From: a virus
Lineage: Duplodnaviria > Caudoviricetes
Virus record (IMG/VR): IMGVR_UViG_3300037183_000125
Span: 69,886-133,885 of that record
DNA length: 64,000 nucleotides
Strand: one strand, 5' to 3'
Shown here: positions 31,091-51,690 of the stretch, piece after piece
How positions within the stretch are numbered: position 1 is the first letter of the stretch
Layout of the letters: the number at the start of each line of letters is the position of its first letter
Made by a program: the position numbers and the translations under genes
The notes under the pieces: model-generated
Told to the model about the DNA's origin: nothing
What the model saw: only the letters and a program-made list of their open reading frames with translations
Database searches by the model: none

Positions 31091-31507
31091 TCACATTCTC
31101 TCACCAGTGAGAGCGTTGACAACCTCCGCCTTGGAGAAAACGGCTATCGAGTCTGAGTCCCCTCCTTGAAGGTAGGCGTCATACCCCTCTTCCTCAAGCT
31201 TTTTGAAGAAACCCTCCTCGCTGATCCTGTCCATGTCCCCGTAGTACCAGTCGTTTTCTTCTTCGGTAGGCGTGTACGGGTTCTGAACGTTGATCCAGCA
31301 GGTCAGAACCTCCCCCTTCCCGTCTGCCGTATAAAGGTCGTCAACCCATCCCTGCCTCCCGGCGAACCAAACTCCGTTGTCGGGGCGCCGGAACTTCTTG
31401 ACGGACTTGGACCTGGAGCCGTGGTAGACAGGATAACCTACCTTGGATCCGGGAAAAGGATTCGGGACAAGACCCGGTTCTCCCACCGGGTCTTCTTCAG
31501 CCGCCAC
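31091..31507 (-). CDS. ADP-ribosyltransferase-fold protein (ART-PolyVal-like)
   Basis: VYHGS...F...GVWFA...CWINVQNPY...GYDA...IAVF pattern; start uncertain. Confidence 0.6.
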   Translation of the reverse strand: MAAEEDPVGEPGLVPNPFPGSKVGYPVYHGSRSKSVKKFRRPDNGVWFAGRQGWVDDLYTADGKGEVLTCWINVQNPYTPTEEENDWYYGDMDRISEEGFFKKLEEEGYDAYLQGGDSDSIAVFSKAEVVNALTGERM

Positions 31508-32516
31508 GAGCCGGTTGGCTATCTTCAGGAAGTGCTACCGGAAAGGAAGAACGTCTACGACTCTCCAGGGCACGACGGTTATCGCAGGGGCGACACCGCA
31601 TCCTCCCGGACACCAGCATGTCCTTCGGGACCCCGCAAACCCGGCACGGAAGCTTTACCTTCGACGCAGCGAGGCATATCGAGCAAATCCGGCGCCCGGC
31701 CTTACTCAAGAGAACGTTGTCGTCCGAGTAGGGGTGCCCCTTCGGACATGAGGTCTTCGCGGCCTTCTTCCGGGCATAGTTGCAGGCCTTGCACTCCCTT
31801 GAGCCGTCACGTCCTAAGGCCGTGTTCTCCGGAGTGAACTCATGGCCGCGCTTACAATGCGTTGCGGCGGCCGACGCGGCAGCGTGGGCGCGAGGTCCGG
31901 CGGAGCAGCGCTCACGGAAGGACGGATCGTTCCAGTTGTCGCGGAGCTTCTGACGGACGGCAGGACGGGCAGCGGACTCCTTCAGGGCGGAATGCTGCTT
32001 CTCGCGGTAGTTCGGGTCCTTCCAGAGGTCGGAGACGGAGTCGGAGAGCTTCTTCCGGACTTCGGGAGTCCGGATGGCATCCTGGATCGCGGTCAAGGTC
32101 TTGGCTTGATACTCAGGGTCCTTCCATCGCTCCTCGGCTGCAAGACGCTGAGATTCGACATATTCGGGATCGGAACGGTAATGATTAGATACGGGGTGAG
32201 GAACATGGAAGCCGCCTTTCTTGATGTTGAACCCTTTCTCCGGGTTCATCAAATCGAAGCGGGCTATCCATTCTTGCTCAGCCGCGTTCGCCTCCTCGAG
32301 TGTCTCGCAGACCTGAAGAATCTGATGATCGAAGGCATCTTTTCCATACTTCCGGATGGAATTATGGAAATGGTTAGTCCGATAACGAATACGCAGAGCG
32401 TCATAAACATGACGATTCCAGCGCTTCAACATGGTCTTCCGAGTCAGGCCGACATAACGTCGGCCTGAATCAGGGTGGGTGTGACAGTAAATAGTCCAAA
32501 CAGGTTCCTTCTTCAT
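31497..32516 (-). mobile_element. GIY-YIG homing endonuclease with C-terminal CxxGH zinc fingers
   Basis: WTIYCHTH...RRYVGLT...R...E..WI...PEKGFN; HCKRGH and CPKGH fingers. Confidence 0.85.
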
Positions 32517-32552: not shown

Positions 32553-33224
32553 TCACCCATATAGCCTGCTACCAGAGCCTGGCTTGAGGATTGGATTATT
32601 CCCCGAGTCCAGCTGCGGTCCATAGGAATCTGGCGAGTTCCCATAGAAACTGGACCCATCGGACACATCTGTCGCCATCGCGGACGCGTCCTCCATGATT
32701 ATAGCAGAGTCCGAGGGAAAGCTCGCCGAGATTTGATTTAGCCAGCATGCCTCGAAGAACGTGACAAGGGCATAATTCGGGTCGTCCGTCGCCGGGGTCT
32801 TGACGAGGATGGCGGCCTGGTCGCGGTTCGTCACGAGCTCGGAGAACACGAGCTCGGAGCGGAGGTCGAATGGCCAGCGGTGCTGACGGAGCGAGCGGAC
32901 GAGGCCGTCGACGCCGCCGCGGTACCCGACCTCCTGCATGATGCCGGCCGTATACAGGAGGGTCCGGTTCAGCGTGATGGCCATAGGCTCTGTCACGTTC
33001 GGGACAAGTTCTTGGATCTTATCTCCGAAACCTACCCCGCGTACGGGGTCTATGGCCCTCGACTCGGTATAGTCGAAGGTCGAGAGAACGCCGATCTGCT
33101 TGTCCGACGGCTGGTTGACCGTGTACGGACGAGAGAAAACGCGATTCTTCTGGGATATGGCAACCCGGGTGTTCGGGCTACTTCCGACGCGATAAATGTA
33201 GCTATCTGCAGCGTCTCTTGACAT
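32553..33224 (-). CDS. Tail tube protein
   Basis: IGVL..FDYTESRAIDPVRGVG...ELVP...ITLNRTLLY...TFFEACW...IIMEDA pattern of contractile-tail tube proteins; size and position fit. Confidence 0.7.
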   Translation of the reverse strand: MSRDAADSYIYRVGSSPNTRVAISQKNRVFSRPYTVNQPSDKQIGVLSTFDYTESRAIDPVRGVGFGDKIQELVPNVTEPMAITLNRTLLYTAGIMQEVGYRGGVDGLVRSLRQHRWPFDLRSELVFSELVTNRDQAAILVKTPATDDPNYALVTFFEACWLNQISASFPSDSAIIMEDASAMATDVSDGSSFYGNSPDSYGPQLDSGNNPILKPGSGSRLYG

Positions 33225-33251
33225 ACTCGCACATACGATAAACAGCCTTTA

Positions 33252-35231
33252 ATGTACGATAGTACTAGTATGATCCCGCAGGAAGAACATCCAAAAAACA
33301 GCAAGTCACACAAGAGAATCGAGTTCCTTTGCGGGTGTGGCCGAAAGTTCAGAACGAGATGGAATAGTTATCCGTCCGGGCAGTCGAAGACATGCGGAAA
33401 ATGCATGCTCGAAAGATGGAAGAGAGAAGGAGGGCGCAGCTATTCAGACTTGACGCTAACAACCGAGGTTGAGTCTATCGGCCGCATGACCGACCATGTG
33501 AAGTGGGAATGCAGATGTGGTCGTCAGAAGAGAATAAAGCTTTTGAACGTGGTGAACGGGTCTGTCAGAAGCTGCGGCTGCCTGATGAAAGAGGTGATAA
33601 GAAAGGCCAGAAAAAACCAGAGGGAGTTCGAGAAAAAGAGCGCCGACGAGTGGATGAAGGAAATACCGGAGATAGTAAATAGGGGTCTCCCGAGCTCATG
33701 GAGCCAAGGGACGTCGGCCATGATCACGTTCCTATGCAAATGCGGACGTGAGTATTCGAGAAAGTTTAGTCGTTTTTCAAGGGAGAAAGGGACGTGCGGT
33801 GAGTGCGACCTGCGAACGTTCCGGACCGGGGAGACGATAGGGGGAATCGTCTATGTCGGGGAAGAGAGAACTGTGCACGAAAGGACGACCCGTCTTGGGA
33901 CATTCCTCTGCAGATGTGGGAAAGAGTTTGAGACACAGTTCAGAAAGGCAGTCCTCCGCCTAAAGACGTCATGCGGGACGTGCAAGGTCATTAAGGAAGA
34001 GGAGATGGGAGGAAGGAAGTTCGGAAAGCTCCGAATGAAGGTCCCGAAGGACGTGTTCCCCGTCTCGGAGATCATGGAAGACTGGGTGTGCGACTGCGGG
34101 AACGAGAAGAGCGTGCAGATAAGCTCAGTGGTGAAGGGAAGAACTTCATCCTGCGGGAAATGCAGAGAGAAGGTGGTCCTCTGGTATGAGACAAACCGAG
34201 AGGCCATCCGTTCCCTCCGGTGTCCTGTGCCGGCCGGAAAGCTCCTGGGAGGAATAAACGTACTCGAGGAGATGAAGAACGTCGGACATAAAGTCCGAGT
34301 CGAGTGCATGCTATGCGGCAAGGAGCACTCGACAAACTTTCACGAAATAAGGTCCGGAGGGTCTCTGACCTGCGGGTGTGCCTCCGTCCACACGTCGGCG
34401 CCGGCCGTGGCCATAGCGGAGGAGCTGCGGAAAGAGGGGGTCGAGGCGCTCCTGGAGCACCAGGCCGGTCCATGGAGGTACGACGTATTCATACCATCCG
34501 CGAACCTACTGGTCGAGTTCAACGGACTAAAATGGCACTCAATGTCGGGAGCCAAGGAGAGGGATGTAAGGAAGTACGAGGAGGCCATCAGGGCCGGTTT
34601 TTCATATATCGCCGTCTTCGAGGACGAATGGAGAACAAAGAGGGAGTCAGTCATGACGCTGATAAGGAACAGAGTCGGGCTGACGCGGCCGAGGAGAAGC
34701 ATCAGACCGGCGAAATGCGAGGTGAGGGAGGTGAGGGCCGGGGAGGCGAACGCGTTCCACACGGCGAACCATTACATAGGCCCATGTAGGTCTAAGGTTA
34801 GCTATGGGGCGTTCCTGGACGGCCGCCTGGTCGCTTGCGCCTCTTTCTCACACCCGACTCGCCAGTCCTCCCATCCGTGGGAGCTCCTCCGGATGGCGTC
34901 CGTCCCCGACGTGCGGGTGCACGGGATCTGGTCTAAGGTTCTGACAGTCTTCATCCGCGAGCACTCGCCCACCTCCATCGTCTCGTTCTCCGACAACCGT
35001 CTCTTCTCCGGAGGGGTGTACGAGAAAATCGGGTTCGAGTATGACGGCGAAGTGGCGCCGGACTATTATTGGACGAGGTCAAAGAAGCGGTATCATAAGT
35101 CCGGCCTCAGGAAAAAAGGCGCCGAGAGGACGTCCGGGCTCACGGAGCGCGAGCTCCGTGAGGCCCAGGGATACAGGAAGATCTGGGACCTCGGGAAGAA
35201 ACGCTGGGTATGGAGACAGAACCATGTTTGA
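33252..35231 (+). mobile_element. Cys4 zinc-ribbon array + Vsr/EDxHD-like nuclease + Mom-like GNAT domain
   Basis: Six CxCG/CxxCG...CGxC modules; YDVFIP...VEFNGLKWH; NHYIG...WELLRM...IVSFSDNR...GGVYEKIGF. A-rich and opposite strand. Start may be ATG 33270. Confidence 0.75.
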
Positions 35232-35523
35232 CCCGAAACTCACGAATGCGAAAAATATGGCCCGCCGAAGGTTCGAGGCTAGGAGTATTCTCGACCGAGA
35301 GAAGGCGAAGAGGCCTTGCAAGGACTGTGGACATAAATACCACTCGTGCCAGGTCGACGTCCTCAGAAAGGGGGGAGGGCGAAGAGTGCCGATGGCGCAG
35401 ATGCTGCATCTGTCGATCGACAGAATCATGGAAGAGATAGGCAGATCCGACCTAGTGTGCGCCAACTGCTCGAGGCTGCGGGTCCACATGAGGGACCGAA
35501 TGCGCCGAAGCGGGCCAACGTAA
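35224..35523 (+). CDS. Degenerate single HNH-like protein
   Basis: Start ATG 35224; PCKDCG...EEIGRSDLVCANC retained, but the DFDH catalytic motif is replaced by QVDVL. Confidence 0.55.
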   Translation: MFDPKLTNAKNMARRRFEARSILDREKAKRPCKDCGHKYHSCQVDVLRKGGGRRVPMAQMLHLSIDRIMEEIGRSDLVCANCSRLRVHMRDRMRRSGPT

Positions 35524-35552: not shown

Positions 35553-35834
35553 ATGGCAAACGGCGGATACGACAGAGAACGAGACGGGAACATCATCGGG
35601 TGGTGGCTACGCTGGATGCTGGTCGGCGTCCTGGCCGCAGTCGGCGTATTCCTCGTCCTCATCCACGTCGCCAACGTCAGGGTCGAGAAGCAGAGGGAAT
35701 ACCGCGAGGAGTGCTACGAGCACGGGCCCCGCGACTCGGACGGCGACCCCGTCTGCGACCGGGACTTCATGCCGTCATACACGTCCTCGAGCCCCTATTT
35801 CAGGTCCTCGAAAGCCGTCCCGTCCGGATCTTGA
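35553..35834 (+). CDS. Small membrane protein
   Basis: Start ATG 35553 (near-match motif GTAAAGC 5 nt upstream); one TM segment WMLVGVLAAVGVFLVLIHVA. Confidence 0.6.
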   Translation: MANGGYDRERDGNIIGWWLRWMLVGVLAAVGVFLVLIHVANVRVEKQREYREECYEHGPRDSDGDPVCDRDFMPSYTSSSPYFRSSKAVPSGS

Positions 35835-36426
35835 GGGAAGGCTTAGACACCCTCCTTAGGGGGAAGGATCTCTCGAGAGAGAAGGATATCCTGACAAGAG
35901 CGGCCTTCTCTATCTGACGAACCCGCTCCCTGGTCAAGCCAAGTTCAGCGCCGACAACCTCAAGCGTCTTCTCCTTGATGAGACGGTCCATGATCACTCT
36001 CTTGTCACGAGGTTTGAGCTCGGACAAGGCCGTCCGGACGAGGACGGCCTCCTCGTCCGCCATCATCTTCACGTCGGCCGGTATGGAGTCGCTCGACAGG
36101 TGGAGGTCCCCGGCGTCGTCGTCCACGCTGACCGACTTGTAGCGATCCCGCCGCATGTTCGCTTGGGAGTAATGGTGGAGGGCGTTGAAAGCGTTCGTCA
36201 TCACACGGCGCGCGTAGGTCTGAAAGTTGGCCCCGTTGTTCGGGTCGTAGGTCTCGTGCGCGCGCCACAAGCCCTGGCGAGCATGGTTCATGAGCTCGTC
36301 GTAGTCAAACCAGAACCTGAGACGCCAAAGGTTCTTCCTGACTATGAAGTGTGCAAGCTTGTCCCATTTCTTGAAAAGATCGGCATGCCCGGGAACACGG
36401 CATCCAAAAACTCCTATAGTAGACAT
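35800..36426 (-). CDS. Phage-encoded sigma-70 family sigma factor
   Basis: Region 2 DELMNHARQGLWRA..TYDP..GANFQTYA; region 4 TLEVVGAELGLTRERVRQIE. Confidence 0.9.
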   Translation of the reverse strand: MSTIGVFGCRVPGHADLFKKWDKLAHFIVRKNLWRLRFWFDYDELMNHARQGLWRAHETYDPNNGANFQTYARRVMTNAFNALHHYSQANMRRDRYKSVSVDDDAGDLHLSSDSIPADVKMMADEEAVLVRTALSELKPRDKRVIMDRLIKEKTLEVVGAELGLTRERVRQIEKAALVRISFSLERSFPLRRVSKPSLKIRTGRLSRT

Positions 36427-36452: not shown

Positions 36453-37856
36453 TTAGTCAATACCTTTTATGTTGGCGACCGGGTACATCCTACGGGAGAC
36501 CTTGGCTATGCCGGCGGACACGAGGGTGTCGAGGACGGCGTCCAGGTCCTTGTAAACATGACCGCACTCGTCGAGGACAACGTCGCGCGTGTTGGTCAGG
36601 ATACCCCTTACCTCAACACCGCCGAACGTCCGGCGAACATCCCGCATCTCGTCGTTGATCTCGTCCTGGAGAGGCTCGAGCTGGCGCTTCGCAGCGCCAC
36701 GGCCGAGAACGCGCCCGGAGCCGTGGTTCACCGAGCAGGCGGACACGTGGGCGCCGGGCTCCGCGAAGAGGACGGCAGCCCCATGGTACATGGAGCCCGG
36801 GATGAGGCACGGATGGCCGGTTTTCTCCCATACGGTCCCGACGAGGTCCGGGTGGCCGGAGGGGAAGGCCCGTGTCGCGCCCTTTCGGTGCACGAACCCG
36901 CGCTTGGTGGTCCCGTCCGGGAGGACGAGAGTCTCCTGCTGGACCAGGTTGTGGGAGATCTCGTAGAAGAGCTCAGCGCCGACGCCGAACACCTCCTGGA
37001 GTGAGTCCACGACTCCCTCCGCGATGATGTGACGGTTCGCGACGGCGAAGTTGGCCGCCGAGTTATGGTAGGCCCAATATTCCTTTCCGAGGGGCTCGTC
37101 ATATCGAAGCCACGAGTCCTCACGACGGTTCCGGGCGATACCGCGAAGCTTAGCCCCCTCGAAGAAAAAATGGTTTGCGGTCTGCCAGCCATAGCCGCGC
37201 GAGCCGCAGTGGACCATGACGAAGACCTCGCCCGACTCGGCGTCAACCTGCATCTCCACAAAGTGGTTTCCGCCGCCCACGGACCCGAGCTGGTCGGACA
37301 CCTTTGAGCGAGCTTTCTCGATCAGGTCGAGGTCGAGGTCGTCCGGGATGGGTATATGCTGGCGCTCGCAGAGGTCCGCGCGAACGCCGAGGGCCCTGGC
37401 CCCATAGCGGAGGACCTCCTCCCCCTTCTTCGCGGAGAACCTCGGCATGAGGTCCGGACGGCTCGAGCCAACGCCGGTGGCGATGCGCTTCTCCACCTCG
37501 TCCATCCAGAGACGGCGTTTCCCAGGGTCCACGACGTCCGCGGCCGTGAGGCCGGTCCTCATATAGAGGACCCCGCAGGAGATGTCATAGCCGGAGGCCG
37601 CCTGGATGATGACGTCGTCCGTGACGACGACGCACCCGACGGGGACGCCATAGCCGAGGTGGCAATCCGGCATCGCGTACGCGCCGGTCACGCCCTCGTA
37701 GGAGGCGGCGGCCGAGAGCTGCCTCCACATCTCTTCCTCAGAGGCGTCGTACAGGGCCTCGGAGAGGAACGCATGGGCGTCCACCCTCATCCCGGCGGTC
37801 TTGGGCAGGACGTAGTGGCCGGCTGAAGCCTGGGCGGCCCGGAACTTGAACGACAT
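36453..37856 (-). CDS. rtcB: RtcB-family RNA ligase
   Basis: MPDCHLGYG, GYDISCG, LGSVGGGNHFVE, HCGSRG, SHN, HRKGAT, PGSM, HGSGR and YKD motifs are all present. Confidence 0.95.
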   Translation of the reverse strand: MSFKFRAAQASAGHYVLPKTAGMRVDAHAFLSEALYDASEEEMWRQLSAAASYEGVTGAYAMPDCHLGYGVPVGCVVVTDDVIIQAASGYDISCGVLYMRTGLTAADVVDPGKRRLWMDEVEKRIATGVGSSRPDLMPRFSAKKGEEVLRYGARALGVRADLCERQHIPIPDDLDLDLIEKARSKVSDQLGSVGGGNHFVEMQVDAESGEVFVMVHCGSRGYGWQTANHFFFEGAKLRGIARNRREDSWLRYDEPLGKEYWAYHNSAANFAVANRHIIAEGVVDSLQEVFGVGAELFYEISHNLVQQETLVLPDGTTKRGFVHRKGATRAFPSGHPDLVGTVWEKTGHPCLIPGSMYHGAAVLFAEPGAHVSACSVNHGSGRVLGRGAAKRQLEPLQDEINDEMRDVRRTFGGVEVRGILTNTRDVVLDECGHVYKDLDAVLDTLVSAGIAKVSRRMYPVANIKGID

Positions 37857-47500: not shown

Positions 47501-49196
47501 CGCCGAAGAGCGGGGCGCCGTTCGCGAGCTGTGAGGACAGCGTGTACGTGCCGACGCCGCTCGGGCCTGGCGTCACCACGGTGAGGGTATAGGTGTCGTC
47601 CTGGACAGTGTTGTACCAGAACGTCGCGAAGGCCTGCAGGTCCGCGGGGACCGGCGTCTTGAGCGTCACCAGGTTCGTCGACGAGTCGACGTCGAGGACC
47701 GTGACGGCCGGGCGCGAGTACGCATCGCGGAACGACTTGCCCACGTACACCGTAACGAGGTCGGGGCGGTTTGTCGGGAGGTCGATCCTGCCGTTGGTGA
47801 TCGTCTGGTACAGGCTGGTCCCGAGGGGCGTGTCGCGGCCGTTGCCGGTCGTAGCCTTGAGGGGGAGCACGAATGTGGTCGTAGAGACGGCGTTCGTGGT
47901 CGGGTCTGTGTAGCGCGCGACAGGAACGCCGAAGATCCGGTTGTCCACGAGCATGCCGACAACCTGGGTCGAGTCGAACGGGGTCGAGCCGGTGGTCTCG
48001 CCCGGGAGGACCTGCCACGAGGTCCCCCAGACGATCTTCGACTGGTCGCCGTCGTTGACGATGGTGAAGTCCGGGCCGTTCAGGTAGTCCCTGCGGCCGG
48101 GGGCAATGCCGACGTTCCCGACCGACACGACGTTCGAGTTCGGGAGATAGTCGAACGTGTCCTGCCAGGTGTTGAACCAGTACTGGACGGTAACGGTCGA
48201 GCCGTCGAACGGGGCGGCCTGAAGAGTCACGTTGCTGTTGGCGCCGTCGACCGAGGCCGGAATGACCTGGAGGCCGTTGACGAGCACGACAACCTTGGAG
48301 GTGTCCGTGGTAGTGATTCCGCCGTCCGAGCCGTCGACGATCGGGCCGTTGAACACGCGGAAGGACTTGTTGCGGCCGGTGCTGTCGCCGGGGTTGAAGC
48401 CGAGGACGCCGTCCGCCGTGCCGGAGCCGACACGGACGTTGCCGGAGGCGATGAGCTGGACGTGGCTGAGGCCGGCGGCGTCGATGTGCACCGACGCCGA
48501 GAGGCCGGGGACGGCCGCCGCGATGACGTCGGTCGCGATGTCCGAGGCGGCGCGGGTCCCGGCCGTCAGGGTGATGTTGACGGAGGTCGCCGAGTCGTTG
48601 ACGAACACCTCGAGGACGTCGTTAGTGCCGGCCTGAATGACGTAGAGCTCGGTCTTCGGGGCCACCAGGATGGCGGCGCCCGTGGTCACCTGGGACGACA
48701 CACCGTCGACGATCCTCGTGTCCTTACGGTGAAAGAAGTAGTTGACCGAGACGTTGTCGCCCGGGGCGGGCGGGACGAGCAGGGTGATGATGCCGTTCAG
48801 GCCGTCGACCTGAGAGACCACGGTCTGCTGGCCGTTCACGCTGACGGAGACCTTCGAGACGTCGTAGTCCACCTTGCCGGTGCCGCCGCCGTCGACGATC
48901 GGATAGTTCCTGACACGGAAGGCAGCGCGGCCGCCGTCCTGCGACCCGAGGACCGGGTTGTTCGGGGCACCGCCGACCACCCAGCGTCCGGTCGGATCCT
49001 CGCCGAAGATCGGCGTGTCCGCGAAGGAGCTCGAGCCGCGGATCATCTCCACGTCGGTCTGGGTCAGGGTCTCTTGCCCGACGCCGATGAGCACCGGAAC
49101 GCGGAGCCCTCCGAGCAGCTGGCCCACCACGGGGTCCAGAATGGTCTGGGTGTATACCCCCGGTGGTGCGTAGGTCGTAAAGGGTCCGATGGTCAT
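44526..49196 (-). CDS. Tail sheath protein, very large (~1556 aa)
   Basis: N-terminal YAPPGVYTQT; C-terminal sheath domain (ERIGVVG, MAAALAG, GVSIIEQ..MRVRHGLTT, YVPVFPLEYI). Start ATG 49196 with GAGGA SD. Confidence 0.9.
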   Translation of the reverse strand: MTIGPFTTYAPPGVYTQTILDPVVGQLLGGLRVPVLIGVGQETLTQTDVEMIRGSSSFADTPIFGEDPTGRWVVGGAPNNPVLGSQDGGRAAFRVRNYPIVDGGGTGKVDYDVSKVSVSVNGQQTVVSQVDGLNGIITLLVPPAPGDNVSVNYFFHRKDTRIVDGVSSQVTTGAAILVAPKTELYVIQAGTNDVLEVFVNDSATSVNITLTAGTRAASDIATDVIAAAVPGLSASVHIDAAGLSHVQLIASGNVRVGSGTADGVLGFNPGDSTGRNKSFRVFNGPIVDGSDGGITTTDTSKVVVLVNGLQVIPASVDGANSNVTLQAAPFDGSTVTVQYWFNTWQDTFDYLPNSNVVSVGNVGIAPGRRDYLNGPDFTIVNDGDQSKIVWGTSWQVLPGETTGSTPFDSTQVVGMLVDNRIFGVPVARYTDPTTNAVSTTTFVLPLKATTGNGRDTPLGTSLYQTITNGRIDLPTNRPDLVTVYVGKSFRDAYSRPAVTVLDVDSSTNLVTLKTPVPADLQAFATFWYNTVQDDTYTLTVVTPGPSGVGTYTLSSQLANGAPLFGVKFGTKNSLPQIVQWPSGSQSLPDALYFGGSPVAETVTVGFHTSLLPATHASFSNANADPYSIYSYTRLFGGVVIDGNAPVSVDLSAAYKPVMLGQPIATPFTALPSTARLSVQVDGIIVLVDVSTLTSLSTVVTAINAAIDADTQVHPDGSATFLSSAPNALASAVSYGAQSILKIVGRSTQSATNGLVSNVKIQTPTGSGQTNAAVALGLTPNLEVDGSYSAINQPAELVGTKLGAYNIVQNVNDLFLFGIDGQDYTAVLPNGTAVPVAAVVNYVNAGYAATAPAAGQAAALAAAITFANDIKAKYNLHIPFLTSHGSADSTNIVTATNATTLASLLTLCADIKAKFNAHIIDVAAAVHNSPDATNTITETVPTDLPSAMRFLYNVSVHYAGHIANAVVHNAADVTHVLTTANAVLVARVGLGIQAGFVVLDSLVNDVSSVVAISSLGSANSVLGFQPGSVTRLQPSASDIASALNYASAFNALGVAYNILAPGLGNFLSISSRTAGSTSTISFTNVSNSAFVTDTGIGIVPGVSGDSGEAAQSGFQVSSSTPGGSSGIGIPGQTYTDAVTGLRFTVLPASAGDYADGGSFTLVCSSTFAADASIPVRAVDGLEMTVFNTLGMAVGTTALVTTFEKGGSEPAVGDIYYASYQYAKTDLSTQLFSSSKTIIQNFGSQTPDFPLSLAAAVAQNNGAVLVGLKQVLKVPGTSQASVGAYKAAIDEQRKPIQGSVKPDVITPLGTDPEIFGYLNQHCVFMSSPRQEGERIGVVGPAAGTNPLGVTSIAQSLASELMVVSYPDAYVLSVQDNSGNTFDQLVDATYMAAALAGASCNPSVDVATPWTRRQVFGFKKLGRVLDPTEANQVAVNGVSIIEQVDAGMRVRHGLTTNVSNVITRTPSVTLTIQFVQQSIRRVLDPYIGQKFTGGLIKTVESALVGLFSTLIDQQIVQKVAGIAVSVDDNDPTIMRTEAIYVPVFPLEYITSTIQVRIRL

Positions 49197-49318
49197 TTCA
49201 GTTCCTCGTTCGAGCAAAGACCTAAAAATCGAGGTTTCAGTATCAAGTATGTGAAGAGAAAAGTCTGAGTATTAATCTCATCGCTCGAGTCAAGCTGACT
49301 AGATATGAAGAGCCTAGT

Positions 49319-49325
49319 GTAAGGT
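49319..49325 (+). promoter_or_regulatory. GTAnnGT motif (GTAAGGT), 6 nt before GTG 49332
   Basis: Recurrent motif; no SD. Confidence 0.55.
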
Positions 49326-49331
49326 CCCATT

Positions 49332-51284
49332 GTGCTGACCCCAGTAAAAGGACAGAGTCTACCAACAGACGGGTCAAGAAAGCATGTCCTATTCAACTGC
49401 TCCTGCGGGAGAACCTCCATCCTGAGGGAATGGAAGTCGTTCAAGAACGGTCATGCGAAGACGTGCGGGGAGTGCGGGCTATTACCGAAGTCCTACTGGA
49501 ACAGCACGTCGTTCGGGAAGCTGCGGATGAAGGATCCGAAGGACATGCACAGGATGTCCGGGAAAACGGAAGAATGGCTCTGCGAGTGCGGTAAGACGGC
49601 CTCCCTGAAGGTGAGACAGGTAACTACAGGGAGAACCGGCTCATGCGGCAGGTGCAACATTCTTCCGGCGTCGCACTTCATCTCTACGAAATATGGGAAG
49701 CTCCGTATGATGGAGCCAGTCGACACCCACCCGACGTCACACAAGAAGATGAAATGGATGTGCGACTGCGGAGGCGAGAGCGTGGCGACAGTCGCCAACG
49801 TAACGCGCGGATCAATCAAGACGTGCGGTAGATGCAACGTCCTGTCGGCATCACATTTTTCGGAGACGAAATATGGAAAGCTCCGGATGAAAAACCCGTC
49901 AGCCTTCCACGAAGGGACGGAAAAAATAGTCGCATGGACTTGCGACTGCGGCAGGACAATAGAGACAAGTATCGGGTGGGTGACAAAAGGAGATACAAAA
50001 TCGTGCGGAGACTGCAATCTCATATCAGCCGAGAAACTGGCAACCGAAAAGTTCGGGAGACTCCGGATGCAAAAACCGGAAAACTTCCACGCCGGCTCGA
50101 ACAGGAAGGTGTTGTGGATATGCGACTGCGGGAACAAGACGTTGGCGGTCTTCAGAAACGTTGTAAAGGGATACACAAAGTCATGTGGCGACTGTCGGAG
50201 AGGGGTGATCGAATGGTACCTAAGGAACAAAGACAAGATCAGAAATATGAGGACACCGATTAGGCAAGAAGACCTTCCTAAAGCGAGCCCGTTCACAATC
50301 TTGACGGTCATAGAACACACGGAAAGACCGTTCCGGTCTAAATGTGCGGTCTGCGGGGACGAGTTCTGGCCGATATGGGGGAACGTCAGAAACGGAAAAG
50401 CCCTGACGTGTGGATGCGGCATGAACAAGTCATCAATGGCGCAGAGGGAGATATTGAAGGCGATTATCGGTCTTGGCGTCGAGGCGGTCATGGAGGAGGA
50501 CGTGAACGGATTAAAATATGACGTGGCCGTCCCGTCGAAAAGATTATTGATCGAGTTCAATGGCCTGAGGTGGCATAGTTCACCTGACTCGAGGGAGAGG
50601 GACAATAGGAAATACTTGAACGCAATCAAGTCCGGACACCAGTTCCTCATGATATTCGAGGACGAGTGGAGGAACAATCCAGAAAAGGTAGTGCAGCTTA
50701 TTCAGAATAGGATCGGAAGAGGAAAACCGAGATCCGTCAGGCCGAGCGCATGCGAGCTAAAGGAGGTCGATCCGAAAGCGGTAGAACGCCTATACGAAGA
50801 GAACCATTATATCGGAATGTGCAGGGCCAGAGTCCATCTGGCGGTAGTCCTGGAAGGCAAAGTGATAGCAGCCGCCTCCTTCGCTAGGCCGACCAGGCAA
50901 TCCTCCCACCCGTGGGAGCTCGTCCGCATGGCCTCCGATCCAGGCTTCCGGGTTCACGGGATATGGTCCAAGTTAATGCACGAGTTCGTCCGGAGACATG
51001 AGCCACCGTCCATTGTCTCGTTCTCCGACAACAGACTCTTCGGAGGGGGCGTGTACGAGAAGGTTGGCTTCAGGCACGATGGTGACATAAGGCCCGACTA
51101 TTACTGGACGAAGGGCGGCAGGAGGTATCACAAGTCTGGCCTCCGGAAGAAAGGCGAGGAGAGGACGTCCGGTCTGACGGAGACACAACTCCGGGAGGCG
51201 AAAGGATACAGGAAGATCTGGGATCTCGGAAAGAAGCGATGGATATGGAGGGCTAACCCCCGGCATCCTTCTTCGCGGCCTTGA
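49332..51284 (+). mobile_element. Cys4 zinc-ribbon array + Vsr/EDxHD-like nuclease + Mom-like GNAT domain (paralog of 33252-35231)
   Basis: Six Cys4 modules; YDVAVP...IEFNGLRWH; NHYIG...WELVRM...IVSFSDNR...GGVYEKVGF. Confidence 0.75.
49512..50231 (+). repeat. Four imperfect 180-bp (60-aa) tandem coding repeats
   Basis: (F/Y)G(K/R)LRM codons recur at 49512, 49692, 49872 and 50052. Confidence 0.85.
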
Positions 51285-51690
51285 ACATCCTCAGGCCGGC
51301 CTCCCGCCCCTTCAGCGTCACATCATCGGCCGGCCTCGGGCCGTCCTTTGTGTCCATGATGGCCACGGACCCGGTCTCCCGGCGCACCCTGTCGCGCGCC
51401 TCTTTCTTGGGGAGGTAGTCCTTCCATCGACGGTTCGCGGACCTGCCAATGGCCTTGTCGAGGCTCGGGTAGTCGAGGTCGTGGGAGCCGGACGAGGAGC
51501 GGCCGCTGGTAGGGTCGGATCCGGCAACGCCCTTGAAGGCGAAGTTGGTGGCCGACGGGATCCGCTTGCAGGGCTGATGGCACGCCGGGCACGGGTGCTC
51601 CCTCTCGTACCTCTTGGTGTCAGCCACCGAGATGTGGAGCTCCTCAAACGTGGCCTCGCAAGCCTCACATGCGTACTCGTACGAAGGAAT
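51253..51690 (-). CDS. FmdB-family zinc-ribbon protein (probable ATT start)
   Basis: xPSYEYACEAC...CPAC...F.FKG signature. GGAGG lies 5 nt before ATT 51690; GTAGGGT motif at 51706-51712. Confidence 0.7.
   Translation of the reverse strand: MPSYEYACEACEATFEELHISVADTKRYEREHPCPACHQPCKRIPSATNFAFKGVAGSDPTSGRSSSGSHDLDYPSLDKAIGRSANRRWKDYLPKKEARDRVRRETGSVAIMDTKDGPRPADDVTLKGREAGLRMFKAAKKDAGG

Follow-up and report, generated by a model that had tools for sequence, protein, structure and literature searches.

In a 64,000-nucleotide stretch of a viral genome (Duplodnaviria; Caudoviricetes), hereafter the window, corresponding to positions 69,886 to 133,885 of the IMG/VR record IMGVR_UViG_3300037183_000125, we found two paralogous free-standing homing endonuclease genes (HEGs), named here HEG A and HEG B, or A and B. 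Both encode proteins with a six-module zinc array, a Vsr-like nuclease and a C-terminal domain related to Mom, and both are mobile. They belong to the Hef-like branch of the EDxHD/Vsr family and are carried by an uncultured jumbo phage, of which the window is a fragment, since the 133.9-kb record has a CheckV completeness estimate of 31%. With moderate confidence, we suggest that A and B are Hef-like homing endonuclease genes whose zinc modules each make their own contacts to DNA and thereby direct the enzyme to its target, a specificity in which the nuclease domain probably has a part. Genes of this design have been published and annotated before, and A and B are no new system; we describe their domain identities, their modular organisation, their mobility as presence or absence at genomic slots, and the pattern of variation in their modules. 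Strings of zinc modules have been joined to nucleases thousands of times in nature, and here pairs of occupied and empty sites are at hand for two paralogs, which makes a direct test of modular aiming possible: from such defined alleles, the likely target DNA can be synthesised.

Zinc modules, nuclease and Mom-like domain

In protein A, successive CxC...CxxC pairs begin with a Cys at aa 23, 84, 144, 204, and 264. The spacings are therefore 61, 60, 60, and 60 aa, the last three giving modules 2 to 5 an exact 180-bp period, and they are followed by a sixth set in which the pairs are reversed (CxxC...CxC, at aa 338/360). A module profile built from 355 homologous modules matched A strongly in five domains (iE 3e-9 for module 1 and 3e-24 to 3e-26 for modules 2 to 5) and weakly in a sixth one (iE 3), and it matched nothing outside A and B in the whole 133.9-kb record. 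The original prediction, made from the sequence alone, had proposed four exact 180-bp repeats with a partial first and a degenerate sixth module, and the Cys spacing and the profile agree with it. Pfam DUF4379 (PF14311, "probable treble clef zinc finger") matches A in 3 stretches (38.7 bits against a cut-off of 24.5), and modules 3 and 5 pass the cut-off singly (29.7 and 26.1 bits). There was no Pfam match for the sixth unit, and the NCBIfam search returned nothing useful. Pairwise identity among modules 2 to 5 is 33-50% in protein and only ~50% in DNA, which is why Tandem Repeats Finder reported no repeat over positions 49000-51500. The six modules hold 24 Cys, and the four of each module are predicted zinc ligands. 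In 28 homologs, on which all residue conservation given below for A is based, the ligand Cys are invariant except C108 (at least 90%); the invariant ones include C338, C341, C360, and C362 of the sixth unit. The array is strongly basic, with a net charge of +30 in A and +28 in B.

For B, the same profile found five strong domains (iE 1e-5 to 1e-23) and a weak sixth one (iE 0.35), with irregular spacings of 60, 75, 58, and 60 aa. Its modules fall under the Pfam DUF4379 cut-off, yet they are matched by this family-specific profile. Six modules in a more diverged array had been predicted for this paralog, and indeed A and B share 28-34% of their residues in the array, against 44% in the nuclease, 66% in the Mom-like domain and 42% overall. 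The earlier statement that both C-terminal domains stay close thus applies chiefly to the Mom-like domain. The three strings quoted in its favor, PTRQSSHPWEL, IVSFSDNRLF and YHKSGLRKKG, are present in A and B, but all of them lie inside the Mom-like domain. The start of B is probably the ATG at 33270 (MIPQEE), judging from its agreement with the N-terminus of the family.

The nuclease of A is related to Pfam REase_MTES_1575/DUF559 (E 3e-9; 37.2 bits, just below the cut-off of 38.2) and to the catalytic domain of I-Bth0305I (PDB 3r3p), recovered both by phmmer (E 2e-3) and by Foldseek (TM 0.80, rmsd 2.7 over 97 residues, with 25% identity). Residues D397, E408 and H415 do not vary, and D424 is kept in at least 90% of the homologs; in our own reading, these would correspond to the Vsr/EDxHD catalytic set (PMC3239194), which in Vsr includes D51, H69 and D97. 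Both proteins also match PHROG 559 (E 1e-68 for A and 8e-84 for B) and PHROG 3339, annotated as homing endonuclease (5e-57 and 9e-61, respectively), and these matches span nearly the full length, including the domain after the nuclease.

That last domain was absent from the original prediction, which read the proteins as an array plus a nuclease and so missed both a third, Mom-like domain and a homing endonuclease family that had already been described. The best PDB match of the AlphaFold2 (AF2) model of A in Foldseek is Mom from phage Mu (8bv8, E 6.5e-6). The tail of A matches the GNAT superfamily in Pfam and the tail of B passes the Pfam Mom model (PF25680, 29.4 bits against a cut-off of 27.1), which is not among the Pfam hits for A. 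With the Mom-like domain as query, phmmer did not find Mom among PDB sequences, and the link comes only from Foldseek and the Pfam profile. No other part of the protein is as well conserved as this domain (54-66% identity); an SFSDNR motif in it is invariant, as are, in A, polar residues that include S565, D566 and R568.

In the AF2 models, each module consists of a strand, a knuckle, a second strand and a short helix. The pLDDT is 87.4 for A, ~87-93 for its modules 2 to 5 and 93 for a model of two modules; the pTM values of 0.47 (full protein) and 0.65 (two modules) are too low to establish a regular superhelix. Searched with Foldseek and VIA-align, the model of two modules gave no clear match to a solved treble-clef or DNA-bound zinc-finger structure, which is no proof of a new module fold. 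The weak matches that were obtained are small SH3/KOW-like beta domains and kinetoplastid mitoribosomal proteins (Z 4.0-5.4). The latter contain tandem zinc modules (6yxx_E2, Z 5.4; 6sga_Fd, Z 4.8) and could indicate that the modules bind RNA or protein rather than DNA. We regard this as extremely improbable, considering the weakness of these matches, the fusion of such arrays to DNA nucleases (Vsr-like, GIY-YIG) or HTH domains in thousands of proteins, and the behavior of the genes as mobile elements at the DNA level.

As for the limits of gene A, its start is the GTG at 49332 as judged from the sequence of homologs, which open with MLTPxxGQ; the public gene call for A (P0001, 585 aa) is too short and begins 65 codons late. 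No Shine-Dalgarno sequence was found between this GTG and a GTAAGGT motif located upstream (Table 1). At the other end, the final codons (51253-51284) are antisense to the 3' end of a convergent 149-aa zinc-ribbon gene. Residues 644-650 are predicted to be disordered (pLDDT <50) and resemble a read-through tail past the conserved family end, ...GKKRWI.

Mobility and genomic slots

A and B are mobile. A related phage fragment, G001 (157.6 kb), has no copy of this family, and in its place the two sites hold other DNA between flanks that share 77-83% nucleotide identity with the window (Table 1). The GC content of both genes is 0.52-0.55, against ~0.66 in their surroundings. Among complete relatives, G003 (362.5 kb) contains 8 close and ~5 distant copies of the family, and G002 contains only a remnant copy. 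In the IMG/VR loci used for the comparison of contexts, slot A is filled by homologs in three other phages, in two of them in the opposite orientation and in one with two modules fewer, and slot B is filled by homologs in four other phages. This presence/absence pattern, the many copies and the shared slots are the behavior of free-standing homing endonuclease genes. Since A and B are free-standing in intergenic slots, an endonuclease borne by an intron or intein is ruled out. A megablast search with 12 kb of the window against GenBank phages gave no match.

The slot-A homolog with fewer modules (L037 6004-7557) encodes 517 aa with three canonical modules, against five in A and in the L024 and L056 homologs, and is a natural module-deletion variant at one slot. 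In G001, slot A is not vacant (L003 1860-2279), since an unrelated ORF of 139 aa, oriented as HEG A is, lies there and carries a CPACG zinc motif in its C-terminal part. Slot A is thus a variable cargo site rather than a simple occupied/empty site.

The Mom-like domain allows another view of the same genes. For jumbo phages, Mom domains fused to REase-fold nucleases have been proposed to combine restriction with self-protection by adenine modification (Iyer et al., Viruses 2021, PMC7824862). By analogy, A and B could be single-chain weapons similar to restriction-modification systems, instead of or besides homing, in which the nuclease attacks host or competitor DNA, the Mom-like domain protects the phage's own, and the array provides a shared target recognition. 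The conservation of the Mom-like domain and of its polar residues S565, D566 and R568 fits this view. However, the genes are insertions in intergenic slots beside conserved virion genes, with many diverged copies and absence from close relatives, a distribution that characterises homing endonuclease genes rather than a core defence function. We consider the weapon unlikely, although it and homing are not mutually exclusive.

Table 1. Coordinates of HEG A, HEG B and their associated features in the window.
Feature	Position	Strand	Details
HEG A, Hef-like free-standing homing endonuclease gene	49332..51284	+	650 aa, GTG start; PHROG 559/3339
GTAAGGT motif, candidate promoter for a leaderless mRNA	49319..49325	+	6 nt upstream of the HEG A GTG; read from the sequence
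Module 1 of A (aa 1-57), variant Cys4 module without the FGKLRM strand	49332..49502	+	Cys 23, 25, 45, 48; profile iE 2.8e-9, model positions 17-60
Modules 2-5 of A, canonical 60-aa DUF4379 Cys4	49503-49682, 49683-49862, 49863-50042, 50043-50222	+	Pfam PF14311; profile iE 3e-24 to 3e-26
Linker helix (aa 288-304) and degenerate sixth Cys4 unit of A	50223..50444	+	CxxC at 338, CxC at 360; module profile iE 3
Vsr/EDxHD-like PD-(D/E)xK nuclease domain of A (aa 366-465)	50427..50726	+	Pfam MTES_1575; PDB 3r3p
Mom-family GNAT-like C-terminal domain of A (aa 466-640)	50727..51251	+	Top Foldseek hit phage Mu Mom 8bv8
Indel A, 2049 bp	49231..51279	.	534 unrelated bp in G001 (L003) instead; blastn flanks 79.7% left, 76.6% right
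HEG B, paralog with the same three-part design, six modules	33252..35231	+	659 aa, or 653 aa from ATG 33270; 42% identical to A
Mom-like domain of B	34680-35228	+	Pfam Mom PF25680
Indel B, 2027 bp	33227..35253	.	74 bp in G001 instead; flanks 83% and 71%

HEG B adjoins the upstream side of a conserved 223-aa gene (32553-33224, minus strand), just downstream of which the window has a GIY-YIG homing endonuclease gene (31497-32516, minus strand; PHROG 314, E 5e-27). In phages other than this one, the downstream slot holds a Hef-like gene instead of the GIY-YIG one (L025, L042) or both kinds (L048); a Hef-like gene is present on this far side in three phages. With selfish nucleases of different families on both of its sides, the 223-aa gene is a hotspot. 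In L038 (6001-7953), the 223-aa neighbor is 88% identical to that of the window, but the endonuclease in slot B shares only 44% identity with B; either the selfish gene changes much more rapidly than the backbone, or it was replaced.

At the other end of HEG B, there is a 100-aa ORF starting with MFDPKL (35221-35523, plus strand), whose similarity to HNH-endonuclease PHROGs is limited to their C-terminal part (E 1.5e-10). It begins at an ATG placed 8 nt ahead of the end of the HEG B stop codon (ATGTTTGA), an overlap that suggests translational coupling of this ORF to HEG B. The 5' end of HEG B (33268-33290, ATGATCCCGCAGGAAGAAC) is similar to the sequence with which the MFDP gene begins in the G001 empty allele (TCGATCCCCGCAGAGAGAAC; L009, ~1727-1802), and it is nearer to that sequence than the window's own MFDP start is. 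This likeness may be a remnant of the junction or target site, or may have arisen by chance. The empty site B of G001 also holds an 18-bp palindrome, ATACGACAGGTTTCGTAT. Just downstream of the HEG B island are a sigma-factor gene (35800-36426, minus strand; PHROG 351, E 3e-21) and an RtcB-type RNA ligase gene (36453-37856, minus strand; PHROG 1075, E 2e-67).

Module variation and the role of the array

The variation of the modules was investigated in 102 family members (A, B and 100 homologs), which have 2-7 canonical modules per protein. Exactly 60 aa separate the modules in 220 of 327 spacings. The consensus, xxKFGKLRMKxPxDIxPGSxKKVxWICDCGxETxxxIxxVTSGxTKSCGKCN, reveals a scaffold rich in conserved Lys and Arg. 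In 121 recently duplicated pairs of modules within the same protein, the mismatch exceeds 0.8 at positions 20, 36, 38, 39, and 44 and is ~0.75 at positions 16 and 34. Some homologs, such as P0002, have modules 65-78% identical to each other that differ chiefly at these hypervariable positions. In the models, the two Cys pairs are connected by a strand and a short helix, which are formed by positions 34-39. A conserved scaffold with varying residues between the Cys pairs had been noticed in A from the letters alone; LKVRQVT and the other strings quoted then are module positions 35-41, and the observation is confirmed across the family.

The same positions were compared among 18 genes grouped by genomic slot, with positions 52-60 excluded. 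At the seven variable positions, modules of the same slot and the same index are 27% identical, dropping to 11% for another index in the same slot and to 9.5% for the same index in another slot; the corresponding values for scaffold positions are 42%, 36%, and 34%. The sharp drop of the variable residues, with a scaffold that barely changes, indicates that they carry module- and slot-specific information, which makes modular aiming testable. The cells of this comparison are not phylogenetically independent, so its p-values are nominal. A per-position scan for orthology excess was noisy and dominated by positions 58-59, which differ structurally in the last module.

More broadly, the module superfamily comprises 15,974 representative clusters at E <= 1e-3, in which arrays reach 11-12 modules and are joined, among others, to GIY-YIG or HTH domains, and such size and variety of partners fit a portable nucleic-acid-binding unit. 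The varying number of modules, the conserved scaffold with hypervariable sites, the basic charge and the slot-linked residues all fit a role in aiming at DNA. From this we infer DNA binding, the contact residues and cleavage, as follows. The basic array would lie along the DNA beside the cleavage site and keep the nuclease bound to a long target in the gene-free allele. Every module would contribute its own contacts through a variable patch (positions 34-39 and 44, plus 16 and 20), with specificity probably shared between array and nuclease domain, and repair of the cut would copy the gene into the empty slot.

Several points weigh against such aiming. The closest solved folds, although weakly matched, are the RNA-binding mitoribosomal proteins mentioned above. 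The conservation of variable residues within a slot is modest, partly what plain orthology would give, and ~73% of these residues differ even within one slot, in a comparison whose cells share ancestry. The L037 protein occupies slot A with two modules fewer, so occupancy of this slot does not need every module. The nuclease diverges as much as the array (32-44% against 34-45% identity for A or B and their same-slot homologs; 39-44% against 44-45% across the family), which does not support the constant catalytic part of the original prediction. Finally, I-Bth0305I, the only relative to have been characterised, owes its specificity mostly to its nuclease domain, and its N-terminal modules bind largely non-specifically (PMC3239194).

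Some of these points would be expected if the array were a non-specific DNA clamp or spacer giving affinity and reach, while the Vsr-like nuclease, probably a dimer, read the sequence at the cut. I-Bth0305I, a homodimer with a footprint of ~60 bp and a specificity centered on 14 bp at the cut (PMC3239194), is a precedent for this arrangement, and the equal divergence of nuclease and array, the abundance of conserved Lys and Arg in the scaffold and the shortened array of L037 agree with it. Yet a clamp does not need module-specific residues, and the variable positions of same-index modules in the same slot are kept ~2.5x better than those of other module pairs. Moreover, paralogs at different slots are ~10% identical at these residues, that is, essentially randomised, on a similar scaffold (34-42%). 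For these reasons we take the clamp to be a rather unlikely explanation. The earlier claim that the array is the DNA reader is therefore only partly sustained: the modular unit, the hypervariable sites, the basic charge and the slot-linked residues speak for it, but a role as the main reader is unsupported, given the part played by the nuclease in I-Bth0305I.

The original prediction went further, to a recognition code by module, in which each module would read a fixed number of base pairs via few residues, so that an array, as with TALEs or C2H2 fingers, could be deciphered or reprogrammed. The exact 60-aa period, the varying module number, the clustering of hypervariable positions on one strand and helix, and homologs of the P0002 type are compatible with a code. 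On the other hand, at least 7 positions vary besides many loop positions, most modules are only 33-50% alike, and the variable residues mostly differ within a slot. The first and last modules are structurally different, the spacing in B is irregular, and the pTM values do not establish a regular superhelix. A code of this kind seems quite unlikely to us. A bolder combination is still more doubtful, namely that the modules follow a largely additive, decipherable DNA rule at positions 34-39 and 44 and that the Mom-like domain marks the phage's own target for self-immunity. If the additive rule were true, the thousands of natural arrays would join C2H2 fingers and TALEs as a third programmable scaffold for DNA binding.

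Comparison with known systems

The closest published relatives of aiming by a module array are phage homing endonucleases with three to five ~60-aa CapR/DUF4379/DUF723-related domains and an EDxHD/Vsr-like nuclease (Merk & Eddy, NAR 2025, PMC12350094). Their array domains were proposed as DNA binders similar to NUMODs, and the group is large, with thousands of unannotated relatives. A and B share with it the presence in phages, the DUF4379-related array of ~60-aa units (six here) and the Vsr-like nuclease of ~100 aa that follows. Unlike these proteins, which are found inside group I/II introns and reportedly end with the nuclease, A and B are free-standing in intergenic regions and have the additional Mom-like domain.

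A tblastn search recovered genes annotated as Hef-like homing endonucleases in Campylobacter, Klebsiella and Xanthomonas phages, which share with A and B PHROGs 559/3339 and the C-terminal half composed of nuclease and Mom-like domain (25-31% identity). Hef of the T-even phage U5 is reported to cleave near nrdB (PMC2988022, citing Sandegren 2005), and Hef-type endonucleases have been tied to the Vsr-like family (PMC3239194). Campylobacter phages in culture, CP30A among them, carry about 10 Hef-like copies each. A protein of the Campylobacter phage CP30A, whose gene adjoins the tail sheath gene, also has about six zinc modules. In contrast to those of A and B, they are of a C-x3-H...CxxC variant, too diverged for tblastn with the array alone; in cultured phages, modules 2 to 5 of A alone found no match at 1e-6.

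I-Bth0305I, the EDxHD prototype, is likewise a phage homing endonuclease with N-terminal binding modules followed by a homologous Vsr-like domain. It differs in being a homodimer with two helix-turn-helix NUMODs instead of zinc modules, in having no Mom-like domain, and in a specificity that resides mainly in the nuclease. I-TevI and I-TevIII are natural phage homing endonucleases with Cys4 zinc fingers too, but each has a single finger and no tandem array. The finger of I-TevI serves to link domains or to set distance, and is not known to read bases.

The jumbo-phage fusions of Iyer et al. (PMC7824862) resemble A and B in joining a Mom-family GNAT domain to a nuclease of the restriction-endonuclease fold. 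The passages of that work devoted to the fusions do not mention a zinc-module array, and the term "treble clef" is absent from the paper.

A last comparison is that with engineered zinc-finger and TALE nucleases, since the original prediction had described A as similar to a natural zinc-finger nuclease. The modules gave no real C2H2 match, the sole C2H2 Pfam model among the matches listed scoring 13 bits against a cut-off of 27. They are also far less uniform than TALE repeats, with 33-50% identity in A and at least 7 hypervariable positions instead of near-identity. Because the modules have the features of neither C2H2 fingers nor TALE repeats, the label describes a functional analogy only. 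A and B are natural and selfish, with 60-aa Cys4 DUF4379 modules in the place of 28-aa C2H2 or 34-aa TALE repeats and a Vsr-like nuclease in the place of FokI, but they have in common with the engineered enzymes a tandem of small modules, hypervariable residues on a constant scaffold, and a fused nuclease.

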